From IMG/VR virus record IMGVR_UViG_3300045136_000099: a DNA stretch of 47,636 nt. The stretch is one strand, 5' to 3'. The stretch's first letter is position 1; each line of letters opens with the position of its first letter. The stretch is from a virus. Positions 15,844 to 43,147 of the stretch are shown piece after piece. The translations under genes were made by a program, and so were the position numbers. The notes under the pieces are model-generated. The model was not told where the DNA came from. It made no database searches and saw only the letters and a program-made list of their open reading frames with translations.

Positions 15844-16185
15844 TTACCCTCGGTGGCCTTCGTGGCTGCCGAGGGTTTTATTTTTGCGTATGTTCACGCG
15901 CTGCTCACTTTTAGTAGCCCATCGACAATTGCTTGGCTCGTAATTACCAAAAGGGTCGATTCGATCGAGCGTCATTCCATCTAGTCGTTCGCCCATGTCC
16001 GCCAGGAAGTTGTCGAAGGAGTCCCAGCGCTCGCAAACGCGGACACCGCGCCCGCCATATAGCGGGTAGTTCTCGTGCCTAGGGTTGCGGCAACGTTGCC
16101 GCATAGCCTGCCAACTTATGTACGTTGGTGTTCTGTTTCCGTTGCAGCCTCTATTTGGTTTCGATCGTGGACCTCTGCTTCCCAT
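15844..16185 (-). CDS. HNH homing-endonuclease-like protein (113 aa)
   Basis: YISWQAMRQRCRNP...YGGRGVRVCERW...LDRIDPFGNYEPSNCRWATKSEQ, a pattern common in phage HNH_3-type endonucleases. Terminal position in its operon. Confidence 0.7.
   Translation of the reverse strand: MGSRGPRSKPNRGCNGNRTPTYISWQAMRQRCRNPRHENYPLYGGRGVRVCERWDSFDNFLADMGERLDGMTLDRIDPFGNYEPSNCRWATKSEQRVNIRKNKTLGSHEGHRG
15846..15886 (+). terminator. Intrinsic terminator of the late (+) operon
   Basis: ACCCTCGGTGGCC-TTCGT-GGCTGCCGAGGGT stem (13 bp with two G.U pairs) followed by TTTTATTTTT. It overlaps the last codons of the - strand HNH ORF. Confidence 0.75.
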
Positions 16186-17752: not shown

Positions 17753-18141
17753 ATGACTCCTTTCGCTTTCGTGATGCCGGCGACGTACCTCCGAAGGTGG
17801 AAGTACGGCCGGTACATCGCGTCGGGTAGAAGGAGGAAGGGAGTGCGCTCCTCCTCCATTAGCAGGCTGTTTGGGATGTCCTCGACGAGTCCGACATAAG
17901 CCGGCTCGGCCATCGGAATCTTCATCAGGCTGAAGACATCCATGTGCGCGCCGAGAGTGGCGAGTTGGGGGTGCACGACCTGGAGACCCAACTGTTTGCC
18001 GTCCTCGAGCTCCAGCACCCCTAACTCGTACTTGTCGCGCGTGGTGATGATGCGCGTGCCGGCGGATAGTGGGGCCATGATGACCGCCACCTGGGGATTC
18101 CGATGGAACGGCGCCGGCAGCAGCTCAATCCACGACTTCAC
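17743..18141 (-). CDS. Hypothetical protein (132 aa)
   Basis: GTG start in a GTGA overlap with the RNA-ligase stop (GGTGCGTGAAGTCG). The rest of ORF 17743..18564 overlaps the ligase gene. Confidence 0.5.
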   Translation of the reverse strand: MKSWIELLPAPFHRNPQVAVIMAPLSAGTRIITTRDKYELGVLELEDGKQLGLQVVHPQLATLGAHMDVFSLMKIPMAEPAYVGLVEDIPNSLLMEEERTPFLLLPDAMYRPYFHLRRYVAGITKAKGVIWG

Positions 18142-19280
18142 GCACCCTTCCGCATGAGGTACTCCGCGCCGACGTACTTCGCCTTGCGACGGGGACCCTC
18201 GAGCGACTCGACGACAACGCCCTCGCGGATCTGGCTGTTGTCGAAGTACGACGGACCATCTGAGAGCAACCTCACGCCGTGTGAGCTGAACTTCAGCGGG
18301 TACCTTCCCGTGATGACCGGAACGGCCGGCAGGTCGCAGTCCGCCAGAACGCACTCGCGCTCGAACGGAATCAGCCATCCGCCATTTGGATGCTGTATGT
18401 CGAAGCACGCGAGACCGGGACCGTCCTCGGGCTTGCGGCCGTAGGTGAGGTCCTGGATCTTCCGCCCGCCGTAGGTGTAGCCGTACAGCTCGCCGTAGAA
18501 GACGTAGCCCTTGTAGTCCTTCGTCTTCTCCGCGAGGCGCATCCGCTCGGCCGCGTCCATCCACACGTCCTCGCCGTACCAGTGGTTGCCGTTACCGCCC
18601 TTGATCGTGCGGTGGCTGCCAACGACGAACTTCCAGCCGATGGGGATACCGAGGAAGCGACGGCGCACCCAACCGAAGCGGAAGTTGGTGCCGTGGATCT
18701 TCTCCGTGATGACGACCGGCTCATCCTCCTCGAACAGCCGTGGCAGCTTCTTCAAGCTGTCGACGGTGTAGACCGGGAACGGCTGCTTCTTCGGCTTCGA
18801 GCTCGGTGGCGTCGGGCCATTTGCGTCCGGCTCAGGCGCCCGGTAGTACGTCACGCCGAAGTGGTCGGCGCACCCCTCGCCAAAGGAGAGCTGCGATGGC
18901 GCGGGCACAAGCAGCCCTTGAGAGAACACGCCGCGCAGCCTCGCCGCCCTCAGCCGAAACACCTCCTTGCTCGCTCCGTCCGGCCGCTCCTTCAGGAACG
19001 CGAACGCCGAGTGGCTCGTCGGCAGGAGGCAGTCCACGCTGAAGTACGCCGCCAGATCCCCCGGGTTGTACTCGCCCTTCCGAACCACCACCTCGTAGGC
19101 CGTCTCGCCCGTCCCCGCCATCTCGAAGCGCGCGATCTCGAGTCGATCCGCGTTCGGGTGCGGAAGGATCCTCGTAATACGGACAATCTCGGCTGTGAAC
19201 TCCGTGTCCGTTCGCTGGCCACATGAATCCGCACTCGACGCAGAACCGAAAATCGATTTGAGCTTGCTCCACAGCTTCAC
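18138..19280 (-). CDS. ATP-dependent RNA ligase family protein with an N-terminal OB/tRNA-binding-like domain
   Basis: Nucleotidyl-transferase motifs ITEKIHGTN (KxxG), FYGELYG and RRKAKYVG. N-terminal ILPHPNADRLEIA is typical of the tRNA-binding OB fold. GTG start in a GTGA overlap with the MazG stop. Confidence 0.65.
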   Translation of the reverse strand: MKLWSKLKSIFGSASSADSCGQRTDTEFTAEIVRITRILPHPNADRLEIARFEMAGTGETAYEVVVRKGEYNPGDLAAYFSVDCLLPTSHSAFAFLKERPDGASKEVFRLRAARLRGVFSQGLLVPAPSQLSFGEGCADHFGVTYYRAPEPDANGPTPPSSKPKKQPFPVYTVDSLKKLPRLFEEDEPVVITEKIHGTNFRFGWVRRRFLGIPIGWKFVVGSHRTIKGGNGNHWYGEDVWMDAAERMRLAEKTKDYKGYVFYGELYGYTYGGRKIQDLTYGRKPEDGPGLACFDIQHPNGGWLIPFERECVLADCDLPAVPVITGRYPLKFSSHGVRLLSDGPSYFDNSQIREGVVVESLEGPRRKAKYVGAEYLMRKGA

Positions 19281-19618
19281 CGATCGTCCCCCGAACCGTG
19301 CAGCACCCCTCGCTCCTTGCGGTCGGCGAGCTTGCGCAAGTTCGTCTCGGCAACGTCCTGGAGATCGATGCCCCACTGACGCGCCACTTCGCTGAGGTAC
19401 CAGAGGGCGTCCCCCAGCTCCTTCTTGAGCGCGAGAGTCGTCTCGACGCGATCACCACGATCACGCCAGAACTTCTTGATCTTCTCAGCCACCTCGCCGG
19501 CCTCGCCATTTAGACCCAGCGCCGGGTAGAGCCCGGGCGGGAGGGGTGCCACTAGGCTGTCTCCCACCGGGTACGCCGCGAACGTTGCGGCCTTCGCCTG
19601 GTACTCGTTGAGCTTCAC
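19277..19618 (-). CDS. mazG: MazG-like nucleoside triphosphate pyrophosphohydrolase
   Basis: LNEYQ...LGLNGEAGEVAEKIKK...ELGDALWYL...NLRKLADRKERG. GTG start in a GTGA overlap with the polymerase stop. Confidence 0.7.
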   Translation of the reverse strand: MKLNEYQAKAATFAAYPVGDSLVAPLPPGLYPALGLNGEAGEVAEKIKKFWRDRGDRVETTLALKKELGDALWYLSEVARQWGIDLQDVAETNLRKLADRKERGVLHGSGDDR

Positions 19619-22870: not shown

Positions 22871-23071
22871 CTAGCCCTCCTCATGTGGCTCCTGCGTCTT
22901 CGCTGGATGTCCCGGCTTGGCAACGAAGTGCATGTGCTCGATGAGCTTGTAGACCCGCGCTGCGACGCCCTTAGCGGCATAATGTCGTGCCATAGCTCGC
23001 GCGTTCGCTTCAGAGAGAAGCGCTACGAGCGCTGGCTTGGGCTGCTCGTCGGAAATGACCACGCACATCAT
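22871..23071 (-). CDS. Hypothetical protein (66 aa)
   Basis: ORF with an ATGA overlap to the upstream stop. Confidence 0.45.
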   Translation of the reverse strand: MMCVVISDEQPKPALVALLSEANARAMARHYAAKGVAARVYKLIEHMHFVAKPGHPAKTQEPHEEG

Positions 23072-23892
23072 CGGTACACGTGCCCCTGGTACTCGAACAC
23101 CGGCCGGTTGTGCCGATCGCGGTGCACCTCGATTTGGTCGATGGTGAATCGCGGGCGACCGTCGATGTAGTAGACCGTCACGATGGAGAACGACTGCTGC
23201 CAGCCGGGGTAACCACCGGTGTACTTCGCATGCGTCAGCTCGATGCTCATGTGGCCGCCACCGAACGCGCCGTACGTCTTCGGATTGCCGTCGTCCGTTT
23301 GCACCGTCCAGAACGTGGCGAACCGGCGGTGCAGGTGGCCGATCATCGTGATCTGATTCGGCGCGAGCTTGCGGATGCGGTTGCCGGGATTCTCACCGCC
23401 GCTACCCGTCGGGAAGAAGCCGTGCCCGTGCTCGATGACCAGCGAACCGAGACGGATTCGCGATTCGCTGTCCAGCACCCTCCAGCCTTCGCCGTCGGAC
23501 GGCAGCCCAAGCAGCTGCTCCACCGTCACCGCACCCGACAGCGACGGGTCGGACTCGATCTTGTCCTCCACCCACCGCTCGTGGTTACCGCGCATCAGCA
23601 CCGACCAGCGAGTGCGCGCCCAATCGTAGATCCAGCGGCCCGGCGTGACCGACTCGTGCAGCCTGCCCAAATCGATCGTGTCCCGTGCGCGCTTGGCGTC
23701 GTGTCGCGAGCTAACGCCGCAGTCCGCGATGTCGCCGTTCAGCACCACGTGCGTCACACCCGCCCGCTCACAACACTCGACTGCAAGCCGCATGGCCGGG
23801 TCGTCGTGAAACGGAATGTGGATGTCGTGGAAGACAGCGATCTTGGAGCCGTCGGGAACGTCAGCCCGCGTCAGCTTGTGCGTCTTGTTCAC
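23068..23892 (-). CDS. Calcineurin-like metallophosphoesterase
   Basis: DIHIPFHD, NGDIADCG, RGNHE, IEHGH and IGHLH. GTG start in a GTGA overlap with the upstream stop. Confidence 0.7.
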   Translation of the reverse strand: MNKTHKLTRADVPDGSKIAVFHDIHIPFHDDPAMRLAVECCERAGVTHVVLNGDIADCGVSSRHDAKRARDTIDLGRLHESVTPGRWIYDWARTRWSVLMRGNHERWVEDKIESDPSLSGAVTVEQLLGLPSDGEGWRVLDSESRIRLGSLVIEHGHGFFPTGSGGENPGNRIRKLAPNQITMIGHLHRRFATFWTVQTDDGNPKTYGAFGGGHMSIELTHAKYTGGYPGWQQSFSIVTVYYIDGRPRFTIDQIEVHRDRHNRPVFEYQGHVYR

Positions 23893-24503
23893 TGAATCCA
23901 AGGGAGCCGCTCGTAGAGCTCCGTCAGGTACTCCTCCTCGGCGCGCGCGGGCGACCAAGGGGTGAAGTTGTCGAATAGCTCGTCCGGCGTGATCTCGAAC
24001 GGCGTTAGCGGACCGGCGTAGTCCTCGCTGATGTCCACGCCGTCACGCATCGCATCGCCGTAGACCACCAGCCGCTCGGTCAGCCACATGCGGTCATCGA
24101 CCTGGCGCACGAGCGGGTCGCCGACAAACAGCAGGTTGAATCGGTCCTCGACGGCGATGTCCCACTTCGACTCGAGCGCCTTGTAGTCCGCAAGCAGACT
24201 CTTGAGCGGCGCCGACACGTCACCGAGCACGTGCTCCGCTGCGTCGTGGATCAAGACGCGCGCCGGCAGCTTCGGCTCACTCTGATAGAACCGGGCCGCC
24301 ATTCGAGCGCCCACGACCATGTGCTGCGCGATGGACATCTCGGTGGCGCCGGTGTACCGATGCACCCGCGCCGCGTGATAGGCGAGGTCGCGCAGGCGAA
24401 TTTGCTCCGGGCTCGGCTGCGCCAAATAGACCTTCTCACCCGAGTGCATGCGGATGTACGGCCCGCGCGGATCCGTCCGCCACTTACTGCCCGGCGTCGA
24501 CAT
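23889..24503 (-). CDS. HD-domain phosphohydrolase (YfbR-like 5'-deoxynucleotidase type)
   Basis: SIAQHM...LIHDAAEHVLGDVSAPLK. Confidence 0.6.
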   Translation of the reverse strand: MSTPGSKWRTDPRGPYIRMHSGEKVYLAQPSPEQIRLRDLAYHAARVHRYTGATEMSIAQHMVVGARMAARFYQSEPKLPARVLIHDAAEHVLGDVSAPLKSLLADYKALESKWDIAVEDRFNLLFVGDPLVRQVDDRMWLTERLVVYGDAMRDGVDISEDYAGPLTPFEITPDELFDNFTPWSPARAEEEYLTELYERLPWIQ

Positions 24504-34344: not shown

Positions 34345-35184
34345 TCAATGCTCCACGAGCGCGATCACGCGCCGAATCTCCGCGAGACAGGCATCCCGAT
34401 CGTAGGTCTGGTTTAGCAGGATGGCATCGTGAGGGAGTGCGCCGCACCCCTGTAGACGGTCAAACGTACCGCTGTGGTTCCAGCCGCGCGTCATACCCAA
34501 ACCATCGCCAGCGTCGAACGGAAGCGTAAGACGCGCTCGGAACGTTTGGGTGCGGTGAACGCCCGCATGGCACATGACGCTCGCGATGATGTCCGTGCGC
34601 ACCGGCTCCGTCGTTTCCTTCAGAGTGATCAAGGTGGCGCCCCAATGCGGATCAACTCGAGACTCCACGCACGACGCTCCTAGCAACCGCACGACATAGC
34701 CAGCCGATTCGAGTACGTCGCACACGATGACAGCGCTAGCGCCAGCCCAAAACAACTGCTCGCGCGTGAGCCACCACGGGCCACCACACAGCGCTACCAC
34801 GTCGACGCACGTAACACCGTTGCTCCACACACGATGCGAAGTTCGCCACGCTTGATCCCACTGACCACGAAGCGCGCGATCCACGTCTAGCTCGTCGCCA
34901 TCATCAGCCCAACGCGGGCGACGCTTGCGAGACTTCGCCTCGGGCGGTGCGATCTCGGAGCGGATCTCCGCAAGCCTCTCGGCGCCAGCCGCCCATCCGT
35001 CACGTAGCAGTGCCGTAGCGTCGTGATGCGAGCGGATACCACCGAGATCTATGTCGCCACGCCGATCAACGTAGGTCGCGCGCTCGTAGGAGCGGTTAGC
35101 GTGGTAGAGCGGCTCGCTGTAGACGTTCACGTACTCATCGAACGCAAACAGACGGGCGACCATGTCATCGCTCTGATACAGCAT
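34345..35184 (-). CDS. Hypothetical protein (279 aa), partner of the AAA+ ATPase
   Basis: ATG in a TGATG overlap with the ATPase stop. MoxR-type ATPases usually pair with VWA proteins, but I see no DxSxS MIDAS motif here. Confidence 0.5.
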   Translation of the reverse strand: MLYQSDDMVARLFAFDEYVNVYSEPLYHANRSYERATYVDRRGDIDLGGIRSHHDATALLRDGWAAGAERLAEIRSEIAPPEAKSRKRRPRWADDGDELDVDRALRGQWDQAWRTSHRVWSNGVTCVDVVALCGGPWWLTREQLFWAGASAVIVCDVLESAGYVVRLLGASCVESRVDPHWGATLITLKETTEPVRTDIIASVMCHAGVHRTQTFRARLTLPFDAGDGLGMTRGWNHSGTFDRLQGCGALPHDAILLNQTYDRDACLAEIRRVIALVEH

Positions 35185-36670: not shown

Positions 36671-36727
36671 TTGGCCTCCAAATAATTTTTGCGGGACTGG
36701 CGGGAACTAGTGCACGGTGGATGCCAA

Positions 36728-36756
36728 ATGCTATCCATTTGAAATCCGGTCGGCAA
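36728..36756 (-). promoter_or_regulatory. Candidate early promoter
   Basis: On the - strand: TTGCCG, 17 nt, TAGCAT. Weaker match than the other promoters. Confidence 0.3.
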
Positions 36757-37219
36757 CCCTCAAAAAAGTGTGACAAGATGGCGCGAACGGCCACTCGGGA
36801 TGTGGAATTTTGGGACAGCGAAGAAGTGCCACGAGTGCCGCGAGCCAAACAGCACCCAAACGACGCACTCTCGCCTCGCCATCACCGTGCCCGGAGGTCA
36901 CACTAGCCTCGGTAGCTAGCGTGCATGTTAACCGCGCGAAACCACTAGCAGTGGCGGCATTGGAAATGAGCCATCCATTGCCATTGTTTGGCGCAACCGC
37001 GCGTAATCGCTGGCAAACGACGCCATTTGTAGGCGCTAACAGCGCGAGATCGCGCGCACCAGGGGTTTCCCCGCAGGGGAAAGAAGCTGCGCCCGCAGGG
37101 GTCCCCACACGCGCAAAAAATCCCCTCTCGAATATTACCCACATCCACCTACATGACTCGAGGGACGGGGGTACCTCGTCGAGCTCATCACCCCTTGACA
37201 CCGTCGAAAAAATAGCGGC

Positions 37220-37248
37220 TTGACAGCACCATTTGGATACCGTATAAT
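37220..37248 (+). promoter_or_regulatory. Perfect sigma70-consensus promoter (P1)
   Basis: TTGACA, 17 nt (gcaccatttggataccg), TATAAT. Confidence 0.75.
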
Positions 37249-37398
37249 AATAGCGACAGCAGTTAAGGTTTTGGCGGTGCTACGGCGCAGTCAGTGAGGG
37301 GTGCTGATAGCTGAGTCAGCTAGTCACTGACGAGCAGCCGACAGGCCGACCAGCTAATAGTGGCTTGTAAGGCGCTAATGGCTGAGTAGCATAAGCAC

Positions 37399-37611
37399 AT
37401 GCGCTACTTGCTACTCCTACTCGTGGCGTGCTCGAGCTCGAGGGCGGCGCCGAGGCCGCAAGTGCCCGATACGCTAGTGGTCGCCGACGACATCTTCGGG
37501 AGCGTGACCGCCGAGATCGCGTTCGGCCCTGAGCCCGGAGCCTACGATTGCGAGGTGATGACGCCGGCCCCGCGACAGAACCCCAAGCCGGGCGAGATGA
37601 TTCCACGCTAA
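37399..37611 (+). CDS. Small secreted lipoprotein (70 aa), moron-like
   Basis: MRYLLLLLVACSSS is a signal peptide plus lipobox LVAC. Lies downstream of P1 and outside both large operons. Confidence 0.55.
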   Translation: MRYLLLLLVACSSSRAAPRPQVPDTLVVADDIFGSVTAEIAFGPEPGAYDCEVMTPAPRQNPKPGEMIPR

Positions 37612-37668
37612 CGGCACCCCTAAATAGCAGTCTTGTCGCGTCGTTAGTAGTAGGCATATGAAAACCAT

Positions 37669-37698
37669 TTGACAGTGGCAGGTCAATCGCGGTATAAT
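37669..37698 (+). promoter_or_regulatory. Perfect-hexamer sigma70 promoter (P2) upstream of the tRNA
   Basis: TTGACA, 18 nt, TATAAT. Confidence 0.75.
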
Positions 37699-37709
37699 AC
37701 TTACGAGAA

Positions 37710-37723
37710 GTGGGAGCTCCCAC
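37710..37723. promoter_or_regulatory. Perfect 14-bp palindrome at about +5 to +18 of P2 (operator candidate)
   Basis: GTGGGAGCTCCCAC is its own reverse complement. Confidence 0.4.
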
Positions 37724-37797
37724 CCACGCAGGTGACAGCGCAAAGGGAGACACGCTGAGTCGCCGGCCGATTACGGCGGATGACGGAGAAGCGTTGA

Positions 37798-37875
37798 CGC
37801 GGGATGAGGAAGTCCGGTCCATCCGCTCGGGCTCATTACCCGAGAACGCTGGTTCAAATCCAGCTCCCGCTACCA
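37798..37875 (+). tRNA. Initiator-type tRNA-Met (anticodon CAU), 78 nt with encoded CCA
   Basis: Hand-folded cloverleaf: CGCGGGA-TG-AGGA-AGTCCGGTCCA-TCCG-C-TCGGG-CTCATTA-CCCGA-GAAC-GCTGG-TTCAAAT-CCAGC-TCCCGCT-A-CCA. U8, A14, G18G19 and A21 are in place. It has three G:C pairs next to the anticodon loop and a 1:72 mismatch (C.U). The anticodon stem and T loop are identical to E. coli tRNA-fMet as I recall it. Confidence 0.8.
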
Positions 37876-37879
37876 ATTC

Positions 37880-37950
37880 GAGGCCACGTCCATCGCTTGG
37901 AGCCGTTTGCAGGGGTGCAGCGGGACCTCCAACTCGTGGGTGGCCTCAGC
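37880..37950 (+). ncRNA. tRNA-shaped structured RNA E1 (non-decoding cloverleaf)
   Basis: GAGGCCA-CG-TCCA-TCGCT-TGGA-G-CCGTT-TGCAGGGGTGC-AGCGG-GACC-TCCA-ACTCG-TGGG-TGGCCTC-A-GC, followed by TTTTCT. A paralogue, E2, has compensated stems. Confidence 0.65.
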
Positions 37951-37956
37951 TTTTCT

Positions 37957-38030
37957 GACGGGCTGGCTGGTCGCTCTAGGCCACTTGCAGGGGTGCAGTG
38001 GAAGCTCTGGACTCGCCACAGCCCGTCACC
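37957..38030 (+). ncRNA. tRNA-shaped structured RNA E2 (paralogue of E1)
   Basis: GACGGGC-TGG-CTGG-TCGCT-CTAG-G-CCACT-TGCAGGGGTGC-AGTGG-AAGC-TCTGG-ACTCG-CCACA-GCCCGTC-A-CC, followed by TTTTCT. Confidence 0.65.
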
Positions 38031-38117
38031 TTTTCTCCGGTGAACGCACTCCTTGAGACGAGTCTAGGGGCACCGGGAACATTCATCGGTCGACGGTAGC
38101 GCTTCAACGTCGACGAA

Positions 38118-38182
38118 TAGCCCCGGCCGCTGTCGGTAAGTCCCTCGCGAGGGCACGGCGCGGTACCGGGGCGGCGCCTTTT
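38118..38182 (+). terminator. GC-rich extended hairpin plus TTTTCT, third stem-loop/T-tract unit before terS
   Basis: GCCCCGGCCGC...CCCTCGCGAGGG...GCGGTACCGGGGC, then GGCGCC-TTTTCT. Confidence 0.45.
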
Positions 38183-38300
38183 CTACAGCAAGCTGTATCC
38201 AGAGGGTCAATGGAACTCGCATCACGCAAGCGAATGGGTCACCCGCCGGTCCACGTTGACAAGAACGCTAGACGCGCGGTCAGCTACGTGGAGAGCTACC

Positions 38301-38816
38301 GTGCTTAACGACGACGGTAAGCCGCGGCGTGGAAGACCACCGGGTTCCAGGAACAAGCCTAAAGAACGATTGGTACCGCCTAGTCATGTCCCGCTGGAAG
38401 ACATCAGACCTGTAGATCCAGACACCATCGTTGCTCGCCAGCTGACGATGCTCGATTGGGCACAGCAGGCGATGCGCAACGAGATGAAGCGCGCCATGCA
38501 GGCGAAGGGGCAGTGGATCTCCAGCGATGACATCGCGAAGCTCGAGAAGCTGTCGATGGCCATTGTTCGCGCCATCGAAGCGCTGAAGCGATCCTCCGAG
38601 CTGGCTGACGAGCTCGCCGCACGCCTCAACGCGGAGCAGCTGCTCGAGGCCGCCATCCGCAAGATTGAAGGCCAGGATCTCGCGACGCTGAACTACGCGA
38701 TCAAGCGACTAAGAGCCCACCGTGAGCGCCTCGCGCCGGTGGGCGGGTTCGACAAGATCCAGATGGGCGAGCCGGCCACCGCTACGGCTGCAATCGCCGA
38801 GCTGGCCGAGGAGTAA
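38301..38816 (+). CDS. terS: Small terminase subunit candidate
   Basis: GGAGAG lies 5 nt before the GTG at 38301 (the ORF track starts at TTG 38256). N-terminal GKPRRGRPPGSRNKPKE basic arm and a coiled-coil centre. Lies upstream of terL. Confidence 0.5.
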   Translation: MLNDDGKPRRGRPPGSRNKPKERLVPPSHVPLEDIRPVDPDTIVARQLTMLDWAQQAMRNEMKRAMQAKGQWISSDDIAKLEKLSMAIVRAIEALKRSSELADELAARLNAEQLLEAAIRKIEGQDLATLNYAIKRLRAHRERLAPVGGFDKIQMGEPATATAAIAELAEE

Positions 38817-39268
38817 TGCAGTTCGCGACTCCGACCGCCGACGAGCTGAAGCTGGTCTTCGACTCGTGGGCAAACAGCTTCCGCAAATCACCGTGGGCTG
38901 GCTGCATCCCGAATCACCTCTACGACCAGGTGAGCCGCGAGGTGCAGCGAAGCATCATGGACAGGGGTGCGCGTGTGCTGGTCGCCGTCACGCCGATCGA
39001 GGGGCACGAGGCCGAATTCCCGGAGGTGCGGCGCGTGATGGGCTACAGCGTCTCCGAGCCGGAGCGCGGCATCCTGCACTTCCTGTACGTCAAGGCGCCG
39101 TATCGTGGGATTGGCGTCGGTCGCGCGCTCAAGCAGCGGACCGTCATCGACTTCTCGGCAGGCCAGCAATGGACCTACACGTTCCGCACGCGCGCTAGCG
39201 AGCGGTTCCTCAACAGCGACGTACCCGGCGTGTTTCGTTGGGACCCGGTGCCCGCTCGAGTCAAGTAA
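38816..39268 (+). CDS. GNAT-family acetyltransferase-like protein
   Basis: LHFLYVKAPYRGIGVGRAL matches the acetyl-CoA-binding motif A (R/Q-x-x-G-x-G/A). TAATG coupling at both ends. Confidence 0.5.
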   Translation: MQFATPTADELKLVFDSWANSFRKSPWAGCIPNHLYDQVSREVQRSIMDRGARVLVAVTPIEGHEAEFPEVRRVMGYSVSEPERGILHFLYVKAPYRGIGVGRALKQRTVIDFSAGQQWTYTFRTRASERFLNSDVPGVFRWDPVPARVK

Positions 39269-40992
39269 TGTCTCGCACTCTCGAAAAAGCGCTACGGAAG
39301 GAAGCCGGGCGCACTGACGCGCAGAAGGAGGTAGACAAGCGCTGTCGCGAGCGGGCCAAGAAGATGCTCGCGGACCTCCAGCGCGTGAACCCCAAGGCGG
39401 CGGCGATGGTCCTCGATCCGTCTCCGCACGTCGCGGCTATTTGTCCGCGCCGCGCCGGCAAGACGTACGCCGCAGTGCTCGCCGCGCTGATCACCGGCGA
39501 GGCCAAGCCGGGCTCTATCAGCCTGATCATCTCGCTGAATCTCAAGCAGCTGCGCCGCCTCTATTGGGCCGGCGGTCCTTCGGGCCTGTTCACCATCGCG
39601 CGGAAGTACGGACTCCACCTCGAGTTCAACAACACCTTCCTGCGCTGGGAGCACGAGAACGGCAGCATCGGCTACCTCCTCGGCGCCGACGACGACGAGC
39701 AGCTCGAAGTCATTCGCGGTCTCGAGGCCGACCTCTACATCATCGACGAGTGCAAGAGCTTCCAGCCGGTCGTGCTCGAGAAGCTCATCGAGGACATCAT
39801 CGACCCGCAGCGGGCCTCGCGTAAGGGCCGCATCGTGATGATTGGTACCCCCGGTTTCATCATGGCCGGACCGTTCTGGCAGGCGACGTGTCCCGACGCG
39901 ACGTTCGAGATGGAGTACCCCGAGGGCTCCGGTCAGAAGGTTCGCGCGCGCTACTCCGTCGACTACGGGCAGCAAGATCCCTACGGTCGCACCGGTATCC
40001 TTGTTTGGTCGCGGCACCATTGGACGCTCCAGGACAACACTGCGATGCCCCACCAGTGGGAGGAGGCGCTCGCGAAGAAGCGGCAGAAGGGTTGGTCCGA
40101 CGACGACCCGACGTGGATGCGCGAGTACCTCGGCATGTGGACTTCGAGCTCCGAGGGACTCGTCTTCCGCTACCACGAGGAGAAGCGCACCGGTCGCGTC
40201 ACCTGGCAGCCGAAGTCGAAGCGTATCGACCAGACCACTCTTGCTGAGCCGGACGCGCTACCGGAGGACGGTAAGCCCTGGCGGCTGATTGCCGGCCTCG
40301 ACATCGGCTACGAGGCGCCCACCGCGTTAGTCGTTTGCGCCTACTCGTCGAAGCTGCGCCAGCTCCGCGTCATCGCTGACTACTCGCGCAGCCACATGCT
40401 CGTCCCGGACATCGCCGAGATGATCTACGACGCGCAGCGCCGGTACGGACCCATCGAGAAAATCTACGCCGACGTTGGCAACCTCGGCAAGATGGTGGTC
40501 GAGACCCTCGTTCGCGAGTACGGTTTCCCACTCGAGAGGGCCGACAAGCGCGAGAAATACGACCACATCGAGCTCCTCAACGCCGCATTTAGTCGTGGCG
40601 AGGTGCTGGTCATCGAGAATTCCACCCTCGAGAACCAGCTGCTCACGGTTTGCTGGGACCTGCGCGACGACAATAAGGGCGCGAAGGACCTGCTCGCGCG
40701 TCAGGGCAAGCTCCGCGAGGACGACTCGATCCCAAACGACAGCACCGACGCGCTGCTGTACTGCTATCGCGGCTCGCTGCACCACTTCGGATGGAAGCCA
40801 TCTGAACCGCAAGTGGAGCCCGGCACCCCCGAGTGGGTGAAGCAGAAGGAACTGCGCGCGCTCGAGCTCGCCCGCAGACAGCTAATCGACGCGGAGAAGC
40901 GTGGCCCGCTGGTCACCAACGACCTGCCGAGGGGCTCGTACTTCATCCAGCGCGCACTCACGAGGCTGCGATGGTCACTCCCGAAAATCTGA
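39268..40992 (+). CDS. terL: Terminase large subunit
   Basis: Walker A CPRRAGKTYA, Walker B/coupling LYIIDECKSF. About 570 aa, directly upstream of the portal. Start in a TAATG overlap. Confidence 0.85.
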   Translation: MSRTLEKALRKEAGRTDAQKEVDKRCRERAKKMLADLQRVNPKAAAMVLDPSPHVAAICPRRAGKTYAAVLAALITGEAKPGSISLIISLNLKQLRRLYWAGGPSGLFTIARKYGLHLEFNNTFLRWEHENGSIGYLLGADDDEQLEVIRGLEADLYIIDECKSFQPVVLEKLIEDIIDPQRASRKGRIVMIGTPGFIMAGPFWQATCPDATFEMEYPEGSGQKVRARYSVDYGQQDPYGRTGILVWSRHHWTLQDNTAMPHQWEEALAKKRQKGWSDDDPTWMREYLGMWTSSSEGLVFRYHEEKRTGRVTWQPKSKRIDQTTLAEPDALPEDGKPWRLIAGLDIGYEAPTALVVCAYSSKLRQLRVIADYSRSHMLVPDIAEMIYDAQRRYGPIEKIYADVGNLGKMVVETLVREYGFPLERADKREKYDHIELLNAAFSRGEVLVIENSTLENQLLTVCWDLRDDNKGAKDLLARQGKLREDDSIPNDSTDALLYCYRGSLHHFGWKPSEPQVEPGTPEWVKQKELRALELARRQLIDAEKRGPLVTNDLPRGSYFIQRALTRLRWSLPKI

Positions 40993-41252
40993 GCCGCGTC
41001 CTGTTCGACCTGAAGGCGGCCGGCGTGCGCCGCGCGAAGTTCGCCCCCGACGGCACGCTCCAGGAGGTCGAGTTCGCCGAGGAGCTCTCCGAGCCCGAGG
41101 ACCGGAGCACTACGCAGGTGGTTACGGTTCCCACCGCCACCGCCGCAGCACCCCAACAACTGGCCATTAACGGCGTCGTCGTGACTAAGCACCCCGGCTA
41201 CGCCGCGCTGTTTGGAGCCAACACCCCGCGCTTCCGTTCCGCTGACGAATGA
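40971..41252 (+). CDS. Hypothetical protein (93 aa) between terL and portal
   Basis: ORF from MVTPENLS, overlapping the terL end by 22 nt. Confidence 0.45.
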   Translation: MVTPENLSRVLFDLKAAGVRRAKFAPDGTLQEVEFAEELSEPEDRSTTQVVTVPTATAAAPQQLAINGVVVTKHPGYAALFGANTPRFRSADE

Positions 41253-43147
41253 GAACACTCCAGGTACTCAACCCATTGCTACGCCAGCGCTGGTACGAGA
41301 AGGGCAGCGCCTCGAAGGACAAGAAGGAGGACGAGCTCCTCCGCGCGCAGTCCCTCGTCTCGGAGACGGCCGAGATCGAGCAGTATCAGCGCTCGTGGCA
41401 CGAGCTGAACCTCTGGAATGCCACGCTGCTGTTCAACCGCGAGTTGGTTGGGTTCAATTGGGGTGTCACGGAGGTCAACGCCGCGCGCGAGCTGTGGCCG
41501 TACAACCTCCACACCGAGAATCTCATCGAGGAGATCGGCGAGGCGATGATCTCGAAAGCGAGCTCGTCGCCGCTTCGGCCGTCGCTGGTTCCCACCGGCA
41601 AGAGCTGGAAGACCGAGCGCGCCGTTAGGAAGGCCGACAACTTCCTCTACGGACTGTGGCGGCAGACCAAGAGCGAGGACGCCTGCGTTTCGGCGTTCCT
41701 CGATTCGTTCTGGGCCGGCATCGGCGCCGTCATGGACGTGTACGACGAGGACACCGGGCTGCTCTGCACCGAGGCCCTGTTCCCCGACAACATCATCATC
41801 GACAACCGCGAGTGCATGAATCGGCGTTCGCCGCGCACGATTCGCATCCGCTCCGTTGTCCCGCGCGCCAGCATCGAGGCCAAGTACGGCGAGCTGCCGG
41901 CGACGCAGAAGTACGCCGACTATCGGCGTATCGGCGAGGGCTACGAGATCGTCGTCGAGGCGTTCCGTTTGCCGGACGCAAATGGCGAGGGCGGCTGGCA
42001 CGGCATCGCGTGCGGTGGCCGCATGCTGGTGGACGAGCCGTGGACGGAGGACTGGTTCCCCGTCGAGTTCTTCCACTACCGCGACAAGCTCAGCGGTTTC
42101 TACTGCCGCTCCGGCGTCGAGTCGCTCGTGCCGTATCAGCTGCGGCTGAACGACCTCAACAACGCGATCGAGGAGAGCCAGGACATCCGTTGCCATCCGC
42201 GACTGCTGACCCACATGAACACGCAGCTCGACCTGAGCCAGTGGGACAACGAGGCGGGGCGCATCCTGGGCTACGCGGGTGAGAAGCCCGAGCCGTTCAT
42301 TTGGCAAACGGAGCTGGCCGAGCTCTACCAGGAGCGCGAGCGCGTGTGGCAGAAGGCGTTCAACCACGCCGGCCTGTCCGATATGTTCGCGCACGCGGAG
42401 CTCCCTCAAGGGGTGCGACTGGACTCGAGCGCGGGCGTTCGCGAGTTCCACAACATGGAAGACCGCCGCCACTTGCGGCTGTGGACTCGCTTCGAGGACT
42501 TCCGGCTCCGGGTAGCGAAGATGCACCTCAAGGTGCTCGGCCGCTATAAGAGCGCGAAGGCGTACACCGTGGTGTACCCGTCGTCGCGTCTCGCTCAGGC
42601 CGCGAAGAAGGCCACCTACGAGGCCGTAAAGTGTCTCACCGAGGACCAATACAATTGGGACCTCGCCGCCGTTCCGCTGTCGCAGATGTCGCCGGCCGCG
42701 CGCCGCGAAACCCTCCGTGATTGGGTGTCGCGCGGACTGATGGACGACGCGCAGGCGAAGCGGATGCTCACCAACCCAAATCTCGAGCTCGAGGAAGACC
42801 TCGAGATGGCGAGCTACGACGACATCTACCGCCACATCGAGATCATGGAGAACGGTGGGTACGAAGCTCCGACGGAGCTGACCAACCTGACCTACGGCAT
42901 CAAGAAGGTCGTCGCGAACCTTCATCGACTGCGCCAGTTCGAGGAGGAGGACGAGGAGTCCGCCAAGGAGCTGCGCAACGTCATCGAGAATCACGTCAAG
43001 TGGATCGTGCACGCGACCTCGATCCAGCAAATGGCGGTCGCGATGTCGCAGGCTACGCCCGCGCCATTCCAGCCGACGCAGGGAATGCCCGGTACGAGCG
43101 CGTCTATCGGTAATATGGGTCCGATGGCAGCGCCAATGCCCGCTTAA
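41249..43147 (+). CDS. Portal protein
   Basis: 632-aa ORF immediately after terL and before the scaffold and capsid genes. ATGA overlap. Assigned by gene order and size. Confidence 0.75.
   Translation: MRTLQVLNPLLRQRWYEKGSASKDKKEDELLRAQSLVSETAEIEQYQRSWHELNLWNATLLFNRELVGFNWGVTEVNAARELWPYNLHTENLIEEIGEAMISKASSSPLRPSLVPTGKSWKTERAVRKADNFLYGLWRQTKSEDACVSAFLDSFWAGIGAVMDVYDEDTGLLCTEALFPDNIIIDNRECMNRRSPRTIRIRSVVPRASIEAKYGELPATQKYADYRRIGEGYEIVVEAFRLPDANGEGGWHGIACGGRMLVDEPWTEDWFPVEFFHYRDKLSGFYCRSGVESLVPYQLRLNDLNNAIEESQDIRCHPRLLTHMNTQLDLSQWDNEAGRILGYAGEKPEPFIWQTELAELYQERERVWQKAFNHAGLSDMFAHAELPQGVRLDSSAGVREFHNMEDRRHLRLWTRFEDFRLRVAKMHLKVLGRYKSAKAYTVVYPSSRLAQAAKKATYEAVKCLTEDQYNWDLAAVPLSQMSPAARRETLRDWVSRGLMDDAQAKRMLTNPNLELEEDLEMASYDDIYRHIEIMENGGYEAPTELTNLTYGIKKVVANLHRLRQFEEEDEESAKELRNVIENHVKWIVHATSIQQMAVAMSQATPAPFQPTQGMPGTSASIGNMGPMAAPMPA

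Follow-up and report, generated by a model that had tools for sequence, protein, structure and literature searches.

The phage contig considered here, IMG/VR record IMGVR_UViG_3300045136_000099, was analysed as a whole stretch of 47,636 nucleotides (nt), hereafter the window, with a G+C content of 63% and two divergent blocks of genes separated by 1.6 kb. The rightward block, a structural operon of about 25 kb, is preceded by a noncoding leader of about 0.5 kb in which a sigma-70 promoter is followed in order by a 5' box, an initiator-type tRNA-like gene, one or two copies of a structured RNA element, a hairpin (in the two-copy group only) and a 3' module, an architecture kept in all 12 genomes compared. 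The subject of this report is the structured element, present in the window as two tandem copies, E1 and E2. A preliminary description, drawn from this DNA alone, had presented the copies as tRNA-shaped RNAs with a four-helix cloverleaf. We arrive at a different fold, for which we use the term rod, and consider what such RNAs might do at the entry to a phage operon.

The placement first given to the two copies is accurate. E1 begins at 37880, 4 nt past the CCA of the tRNA, and its 3' end is AGCTTTTCT at 37956; E2 begins at 37957, abutting the AGCTTTTCT tail of E1, and its 3' end is ACCTTTTCT at 38036. Their parts are listed below according to the rod fold.

37880-37956, + strand: rod RNA E1 (covariance model 87 bits, E = 9e-25)
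37880-37887 with 37940-37947, + strand: E1 stem P1
37888-37889, + strand: E1 bulge GU
37890-37893 with 37936-37939, + strand: E1 stem P2
37894-37896 (CGC) facing 37933-37935 (CUC), + strand: E1 internal loop
37897-37902 with 37927-37932, + strand: E1 stem P3
37903-37907 with 37919-37923, + strand: E1 stem P4, with bulged U at 37908
37912-37915, + strand: E1 GGGG loop, closed by stem P5 (GCA/UGC)
37948-37956, + strand: E1 tail, AGCUUUUCU
37957-38036, + strand: rod RNA E2 (covariance model 80 bits, E = 1e-22)
37957-37965 with 38019-38027, + strand: E2 stem P1
37966-37967, + strand: E2 bulge GC
37968-37971 with 38015-38018, + strand: E2 stem P2
37972-37974 (CGC) facing 38012-38014 (CUC), + strand: E2 internal loop
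37975-37980 with 38006-38011, + strand: E2 stem P3
37981-37985 with 37997-38001, + strand: E2 stem P4, with bulged U at 37986
37987-37989 (GCA) with 37994-37996 (UGC), + strand: E2 stem P5, closing the GGGG loop at 37990-37993
38028-38036, + strand: E2 tail, ACCUUUUCU

Fold and covariation of the two copies

Three stretches are common to E1 and E2, namely TCGCT, TTGCAGGGGTGCAG and ACTCG, and the stem segments between them differ yet pair, as had been noticed at the outset. The copies are about 76% identical over a 37-nt core, and all stems differ. The exact 14-mer TTGCAGGGGTGCAG occurs at two sites in the 47.6 kb window, one per rod, and covariance models run over the whole window matched only E1 and E2 (E ~1e-22). 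Folding was more stable than that of dinucleotide-shuffled sequences (z = -3.1 for E1 and -2.7 for E2; 2 of 200 shuffles were as good), in keeping with the structured RNA first proposed.

The shape of that RNA required revision. Energy minimization folds each copy into one nested hairpin, at -36.8 kcal/mol for E1 and -38.1 kcal/mol for E2. Under the same energy model the cloverleaves reach -27.6 and -26.4 kcal/mol, respectively, about the mean of shuffled sequences, and the rod is the more stable by 9-12 kcal/mol. From its base the rod comprises P1 (6-10 bp among the copies), a G-N bulge, P2, a 3x3 internal loop, P3, a bulge of 3-4 nt, P4, a bulged U and a CA-GGGG-UG tip. The internal loop sets C-G-C against C-U-C, flanked by U-G and U-A pairs, and its two facing strands are the TCGCT and ACTCG that had been taken for the D loop and T loop of a cloverleaf.

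Homologues were obtained by collecting the terminase neighbourhoods of relatives together with two IMG/VR contigs, and a covariance model was built from the first 11 copies. With the two sites in the window included, this search, which had been proposed as a check on the family, gave 26 matches (19 distinct) on about 14 related phage contigs, with E-values from 3e-7 to 3e-26. Across the 19 distinct homologues, 96.1% of the cells in rod helices are paired, 21 of 25 pairs have changed on both sides, and none of 500 shuffles scored as high; the covariation score is 0.715 against a shuffle mean of 0.194, and slid controls are 31-50% paired. The D and T arms of the cloverleaf, examined in the same 19 sequences, are 41.4% paired, shuffles averaging 41.7% with 329 of 500 as high; five of eight pairs have changed on both sides, and the covariation score, 0.168, equals the shuffle mean of 0.168. 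The alignment used for these pairing tests was fitted to the rod model, but the D- and T-arm columns are nearly free of gaps, so the comparison between the two folds is still fair. RNAalifold independently returned the same rod and added the pairs U14-G66 and U18-A62, the second of which becomes A-U in one relative (L100). Covariation and energy together thus reject the cloverleaf, and with it the tRNA mimic; that it could be drawn for E1 at all follows from a fortuitous complementarity between the P2 and P3 strands of that copy (CCA / TGGAG / CTCCA / TGG).

The compensation proposed for the stems is found in homologues, in the helices of the rod. Those helices contain 55 G-U and 10 A-C pairs as read on the + strand, an imbalance indicating that the selected molecule is the + strand RNA, rather than the DNA or the opposite strand. 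Together with the strong covariation, it upholds the original view that RNA shape is under selection, rather than coding or primary sequence. A function on the minus strand or at the level of DNA, such as a pac or cos site, is disfavoured by the same imbalance.

Sequence constraint falls in unpaired or tip sites. No variation was seen at G9 (bulge), U14, C15, C63-U64-C65-G66 (the 3' strand of the loop) or the tip C-A-GGGG-U-G-C. The 5' strand of the loop reads CGC in 16 of the 19 distinct copies, CUU in two and CUC in one. Following P1, the tail reads N-N-C in most copies, and a U-run, often only UUU, lies 3-5 nt past the stem in 16 of 19, being absent from L011, L012 and L021. P1 covaries with itself alone, and covariation across 12 leaders revealed no alternative helix linking the rod to the 3' module. 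From these comparative data we regard E1 and E2 as paralogous copies of a structured RNA of about 70 nt, predicted to form a single rigid rod.

Two other occurrences of tip-like sequence were noted in the window. Near-matches to TTGCAGGGGTGCAG (three mismatches or fewer) number 15, against 4.6 +/- 2.3 expected, a figure reached by none of 100 shuffles; the 13 beyond the rods form no uniform set and are probably a product of codon or G-rich bias. Separately, CGUCUACAGGGGUGCGGCG at 34440-34458 on the - strand folds into a hairpin similar to the rod tip (P4, bulged U and CA-GGGG-UG) with a covariance-model E-value of 0.3-0.5. It lies on the sense strand of a DUF7192 gene, beside a MoxR-like ATPase, and may be due to chance.

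Distribution among related phages

The large terminase of the window phage has hundreds of relatives in recent metagenome assemblies. Among the contigs examined (L numbers below), two rods are present in the window, in the L005/L006/L007 group and in L009, L010 and L015, and one rod in L011, L012/L013, L019, L021, L022, L100-L103, L105, L106 and L107; L104 was left out, the upstream sequence at its locus being too short. All matches are to the + strand and occupy one and the same position within this leader, and all carriers encode a large terminase at least 55% identical to that of the window. No rod was found at 63 IMG/VR loci with terminases at most 51% identical, either with the first covariance model or with a second, broader one. 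An informative intermediate is L020 (terminase 59% identical), which has only a short, degenerate remnant of the rod and every other module of the leader; this suggests an accessory module and not a core regulatory device.

Searches of broader resources were largely empty. No Rfam 15 family matched the rods at gathering thresholds or, in a search over 37600-38300, at E <= 10, in agreement with the earlier impression that no described family has this architecture. In the INPHARED phages only the tRNA was matched and no rod DNA, and the terminase has no close relative there. Within IMG/VR only two contigs carry rods, and most contigs of that database are not close to the window phage. A pattern scan of GTDB gave three chance matches inside coding DNA, with a pattern that demanded TGCAGGGGTGCA and was too narrow for relatives having TGCC or TGCG; a similar scan of metagenome_contigs gave three matches, all weak and partial by the covariance model, that in L016 being chance-like. 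Within the databases searched, the rod family appears to be undescribed and confined to one uncultured phage clade; a catalogue of 10,006 candidate phage RNAs (PMC10690425) lies outside that search.

Organization of the leader and its operon

The remaining features of the leader, and the genes on either side, are as follows.

37669-37698, + strand: leader promoter, consensus sigma-70 (TTGACA, 18 nt, TATAAT; 12/12 matches)
37712-37749, + strand: 5' leader box, with GGG, b (CUCCC), CCC, CGCAGGUGACAGCGCAAA and c (GGGAG)
37798-37875, + strand: tRNA-Met(CAU), initiator type (ARAGORN; Rfam 42.1 bits)
38089-38114, + strand: hairpin GUCGACG-GUAGCGCUUCAA-CGUCGAC with loop box GGUAGCGC, found in the window, L005, L009, L010 and L015
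38117-38184, + strand: 3' leader module, with AUAG, X (GCCCCGG, 38120-38126), an interior, GGCGCGG (38157-38163), X' (CCGGGGC, 38166-38172), GGCGCC (38173-38178) and UUUUCU
38256-38816, + strand: first gene of the structural operon, with an AT-hook-like GRPPGSRN motif
Downstream of it, + strand: an acetyltransferase-like gene, the large terminase (39238-40992) and the portal (41249-43147)
38.2 kb, through the contig end, to 15846-15876 (strong terminator), + strand: structural genes
16.3-36.6 kb, - strand: block encoding PolA, a DnaB-like helicase, ERF recombinase, SSB, integrase, RNA ligase and a MoxR/CobS-like ATPase

The 1.6 kb between the blocks carries two perfect sigma-70 promoters (37220-37248 and 37669-37698), and no further sigma-70-type promoter was found on the + strand from the leader to the terminator at 15846-15876. 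Transcription from the second promoter would start near 37705, and near-consensus promoters occupy the same relative place in L010 (2290-2319) and L021 (2278-2306). At the start of the predicted transcript, the 5' box is present in 12 of 12 leaders with the general form GGG-b-CCC-CGCAGGUGACAGCGCGAA-c, and its b:c helix is compensatory (CUCCC/GGGAG, GCACC/GGUGC, AUGAC/GUCAU, GUACC/GGUAC, GCGCC/GGCGC). It looks like an H-type pseudoknot, and no Rfam family matched it.

The tRNA-like gene is likewise kept in every leader. As expected, ARAGORN calls only 37798-37875 in the window, and Rfam agrees. Its anticodon loop, CUCAUUA, is invariant, with U instead of a purine at position 37, and most members have a 1:72 mismatch and a GGG:CCC anticodon stem. 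Many relatives also show a T loop UGCGAUU, a D loop without GG and no encoded CCA, and ARAGORN missed the gene in L005, L009, L015 and L019. In three of these relatives it lies at about the following positions.

L005, ~760-835: tRNA-like gene
L009, ~1973-2045: tRNA-like gene
L019, ~2256-2328: tRNA-like gene

So aberrant a gene could encode a nuclease-resistant initiator tRNA, or be purely a processing or structural element. Genes for tRNAs adjoin rods, 0-5 nt apart, in the window, L015, L010, L106, L011 and L107, in varied orders: rod/tRNA-Trp/rod in L015, Trp/rod/Trp/rod in L010, rod/Trp in L106 and tRNA-Met/rod in L011 and L107. A tRNA-Gly gene follows the rods in the L005/L006/L007 group (1292-1363 in L005). 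In about half of the genomes the rod starts 1-5 nt past a tRNA 3' end; in L012, L100, L005 and L015 it is 80-110 nt from the tRNA-like gene. Overall, the spacing between a rod and its neighbouring module ranges from 2 to about 110 nt (2 to about 100 nt towards the 3' module), and copy number is one or two.

Downstream of the rods, the hairpin with the GGUAGCGC loop occurs only in the close two-rod relatives, the more distant ones keeping just GTAGC. At the DNA level its core, CGGTAG, is what we take to be the core of the RfaH ops element GGCGGTAGnnTG. The 3' module has the general form RUAG-X...GGCGCGG-X'-GGCGCC-UUUU, with an invariant GGCGCGG...GGCGCC followed by U's. Its X:X' helix, of 6-8 bp, is present in 12 of 12 leaders and covaries (GACCGAG/CUCGGUC, GCUCUCGA/UCGAGAGC, GACCGCG/CGCGGUC and others). 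An invariant GGCGC...GCGCC hairpin with a 5-bp stem contains X' in its loop, and since a single nucleotide separates X' from GCGCC, it seems that only one of the two helices could form at a time. In this position immediately ahead of the first gene, the module would constitute a putative antiterminator/terminator pair. The first gene's ribosome-binding site comes directly after this module in most genomes, and several one-rod genomes have an extra strong, classical intrinsic terminator just ahead of that gene.

The first gene is a probable small terminase subunit. Its start is probably the GTG at 38301 and not the TTG at 38256; translation from 38301 reads MLNDDGKPRRGRPPGSR, in agreement with the MDADKRGPGRPPGSR start in L011. 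A 31-codon open reading frame (ORF) from the ATG at 38212, with AGAGGG ahead of it as a ribosome-binding site, aligns with the first-gene start of relatives and could represent a frameshift, an insertion or an upstream ORF in this genome. In the L005/L006/L007 group two extra genes (130 and ~372 amino acids; L005 1537-3052) stand between the leader and the small-terminase-like gene, so that the leader marks the start of the rightward operon and not the terminase gene itself.

Several features outside the leader deserve mention. A 21-nt direct repeat, AACCGCGCGAAACCACTAGCA, occurs three times at 36930-37058 in the control region between the divergent blocks (features noted at 36725-37260 and 37655-37680), and a CCATTTG(A/G) motif lies beside or inside both perfect sigma-70 promoters and is present also at the leader promoters of L009 and L010; either could be an operator site. 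Between the two promoters, upstream of the leader, a small gene (37399-37611) encodes a lipoprotein- or membrane-type product whose signal peptide ends in LVAC, with moron-like counterparts of variable sequence in L005 (304-597), L009 (1486-1797) and L015 (1468-1770). We considered this ORF as an RNA-binding partner of the rods and dropped it in view of the signal-peptide- or transmembrane-like N-terminus there and in most counterparts. On the minus strand, the RNA ligase (18138-19376) combines an N-terminal PHA02142 OB-fold domain with an RNA_ligase domain, presumably resembling the Naegleria/Deinococcus-type RNA ligase, and a calcineurin-like phosphoesterase (23068-23958) has a Pfam match of 21.0 bits, just under the curated cut-off of 21.5. 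The two could form an RNA-repair kit.

Possible functions of the rods

By kind, the rods resemble the structured leader and small RNAs of phages (put, nut, C4/CI and the T4 stable RNAs), without belonging to a family among them. The explanation that we favour, with a probability of roughly 0.38, is that they are modules freed along with tRNAs that display their invariant loops to a conserved partner in trans. Host RNA polymerase would transcribe the leader from its consensus sigma-70 promoter to the conserved U-tract structure at its end, and the leader would act as a small-RNA operon. RNase P cleavage and tRNA 3'-end processing would release the rods together with the adjacent tRNA-like and tRNA genes; where tRNAs stand 0-5 nt from a rod, their excision necessarily frees the ends of the rod. 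The freed rods could persist with both ends locked in the G+C-rich P1, and would be recognized through their GGGG tip and invariant internal loop by a conserved protein of host or phage, for which they would act as decoy, sponge or cofactor. A precedent for non-tRNA small RNAs in a phage tRNA cluster exists in the stable RNA species 1 and 2 of T4 (rnaC and rnaD), presumably matured by the tRNA machinery. The rods share that setting among phage tRNA genes, but they have no detectable homology to the T4 species, are shorter, and lie in the 5' leader of a structural operon in a temperate phage of about 48 kb.

Several observations weigh against release in trans. Rods were found at one leader position only, which equally fits a role in cis, and many copies keep a spacer and U-run after P1 that a trans-acting RNA would not need. 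Genes for tRNAs also settle in the late-operon leaders of lambdoid phages for reasons of expression, so the interleaving of rods and tRNAs is not decisive.

It is almost as likely that the rods act in cis after the manner of the put RNAs of phage HK022, or of nut sites if a phage protein is needed: the nascent rod would bind RNA polymerase, directly or via a protein, which then reads through the leader terminator and the operon of about 25 kb. The setting suits such a role, the rods lying between the only + strand sigma-70 promoters found and the U-tract structure that directly precedes the first gene's ribosome-binding site. A put RNA, of about 70 nt, folds into two stem-loops arranged in a V with a triplex in stem I, binds the zinc-binding domain of the RNA polymerase beta' subunit to yield a terminator-resistant enzyme, and works independently of a tether (PMC9378689). 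Like putL and putR, the rods are phage-encoded and about 70 nt long, have a sigma-70 promoter upstream and terminators downstream, form two paralogues of similar sequence with shared loops and compensated stems, and would act without pairing to a target (PMC9378689). Invariance of the loops over diverged phages would suit a highly conserved target such as RNA polymerase, and because put needs no RNA tether, tRNA processing nearby is no obstacle (PMC9378689). With the spacer of 3-4 nt and the U-run that follow P1, a hairpin-dependent pause would fall about 10-11 nt downstream.

Architecture argues the other way, the rod being one continuous hairpin, unlike the two stem-loops in a V with triplex (PMC9378689). 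The put copies stand in two different operons whereas the rods are tandem within one leader, and no similarity to put was found in sequence or through Rfam. Further objections are the degenerate rod of L020, where the 3' module is retained, and the stem of the putative 3'-module terminator (GGCGC/GCGCC), of just 5 bp. We rank action in trans slightly above action in cis because the rods are packed among tRNAs, vary in copy number and have decayed in L020; the reverse ranking would not surprise us.

A more ambitious proposal, to which we give less credence, unites the rods with the aberrant tRNA-like RNA and the two pseudoknot-like modules as a dedicated phage operon of noncoding RNAs (ncRNAs), about 0.5 kb long, aimed, in trans or on the transcribing polymerase, at some conserved machine of the host. 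Candidate targets would be RNA polymerase (making the rods a second, structurally unrelated class of protein-independent antiterminator RNA), translation initiation, or RNA-targeting defence.

It is unlikely that the rods serve simply as processing or stability elements, whether as sites of RNase III or RNase P type that split tRNAs from mRNA or as a 5' hairpin shielding the structural mRNA from 5'-end-dependent decay. RNase III sites of the T7 type, set within a polycistronic phage transcript, consist of stacked helices that form a long imperfect hairpin and are separated by an internal loop, and the rod, a coaxial duplex of about 26 bp broken by an internal loop, is similar in these respects. 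The short distance between tRNA 3' ends and rods in about half of the genomes and the usual N-N-C tail also fit. Nevertheless, neither RNase III nor 5'-hairpin protection demands a GGGG tip or a C-U-C-G strand that is invariant over diverged phages; P1 varies from 6 to 10 bp, leaving no conserved, fixed 12-bp minihelix of tRNA type; and in L012, L100, L005 and L015 the rod is remote from the tRNA-like gene. The preliminary description had listed processing punctuation among its hypotheses. That idea is possible and is partly absorbed into release in trans, since rods abut tRNAs in several relatives.

Another of its suggestions, regulated terminators, fares worse. An intrinsic terminator or attenuator ending the tRNA transcript would account for the G+C-rich P1 and for the U-run behind it in 16 of the 19 distinct copies, yet the U-run is 3-5 nt off the stem and missing from three copies, a terminator scan does not call the rods, and the invariant loops are left unexplained; we consider the case improbable. 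Switching of the attenuator or riboswitch kind is also unlikely, the rods neither overlapping nor covarying with an alternative helix.

Less probable again is an antisense regulator processed from the leader, its loops pairing with boxes in the same transcript. The C4 RNAs of P1 and P7 and the CI RNA of P4 are structured antisense RNAs of about 70-77 nt that reside in an operon leader and are released by RNase P from the same transcript. The rods are comparable in layout, as small structured RNAs of about 70 nt in an operon leader behind a strong, constitutive-type promoter. They differ in having no Rfam C4 match and no target boxes: no conserved complement of the tip, of GUCGCU or of GACUCG was found in 12 leaders or flanks, and invariant unpaired stretches of just 3-4 nt are too short for antisense pairing. 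Complementarity of the tip to the 5' box or to the tail, assessed by eye, was inconsistent across genomes. Independent folding, variable copy number and spacing, the lack of a helix between rod and 3' module and the lack of an antisense target together make riboswitch, attenuator and C4/CI action poor explanations.

The least probable of the readings is that of tRNA-shaped mimics serving as decoys or substrates for tRNA-targeting nucleases: rods do neighbour tRNAs, resemble them in a closing stem with N-N-C tail and a 2-nt bulge after P1, and share a genome with an RNA ligase and calcineurin-like phosphoesterase that hint at RNA-damage warfare, but the cloverleaf is refuted, no 7-nt anticodon loop or D or T loop is present, and ARAGORN and the Rfam tRNA model (RF00005) are blind to them. 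Shape aside, the evidence speaks neither for nor against a decoy role towards defence nucleases. The related statement that the elements cannot decode stands, the tip loop being the 4-nt GGGG and D- and T-loop consensus being absent. Likenesses to CsrA sites, signal recognition particle (SRP) RNA, Y RNA, boxA, k-turn and loop-E were considered and dropped, as the defining bases (GGA, GNRA, GA/AG and others) are absent and Rfam gives no match. A mimic of a type III antitoxin (pseudo-ToxI-type repeats) was likewise set aside: E1 and E2 share only about 76% of their 37-nt core, their stems differ, and many relatives are single-copy.

Few phage ncRNAs that combine invariant recognition surfaces with strong covariation are understood mechanistically. 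The rods sit at the single entry to the packaging and structural operon of a widespread group of uncultured temperate phages, within an unusually elaborate leader that includes a pseudoknot-like 5' box, an aberrant tRNA-like gene and a covarying 3' helix with a U-tract. Whichever mode of action applies, the family can now be searched for and tested with the alignment and covariance model. Binding of the rods to RNA polymerase would reveal RNA-only antitermination of a second architecture; action in trans would mark them as a new small RNA of phages, aimed at a conserved host factor. Should the leader prove to be a dedicated ncRNA operon, the rods would represent a new functional class of phage RNA for host takeover or counter-defence.

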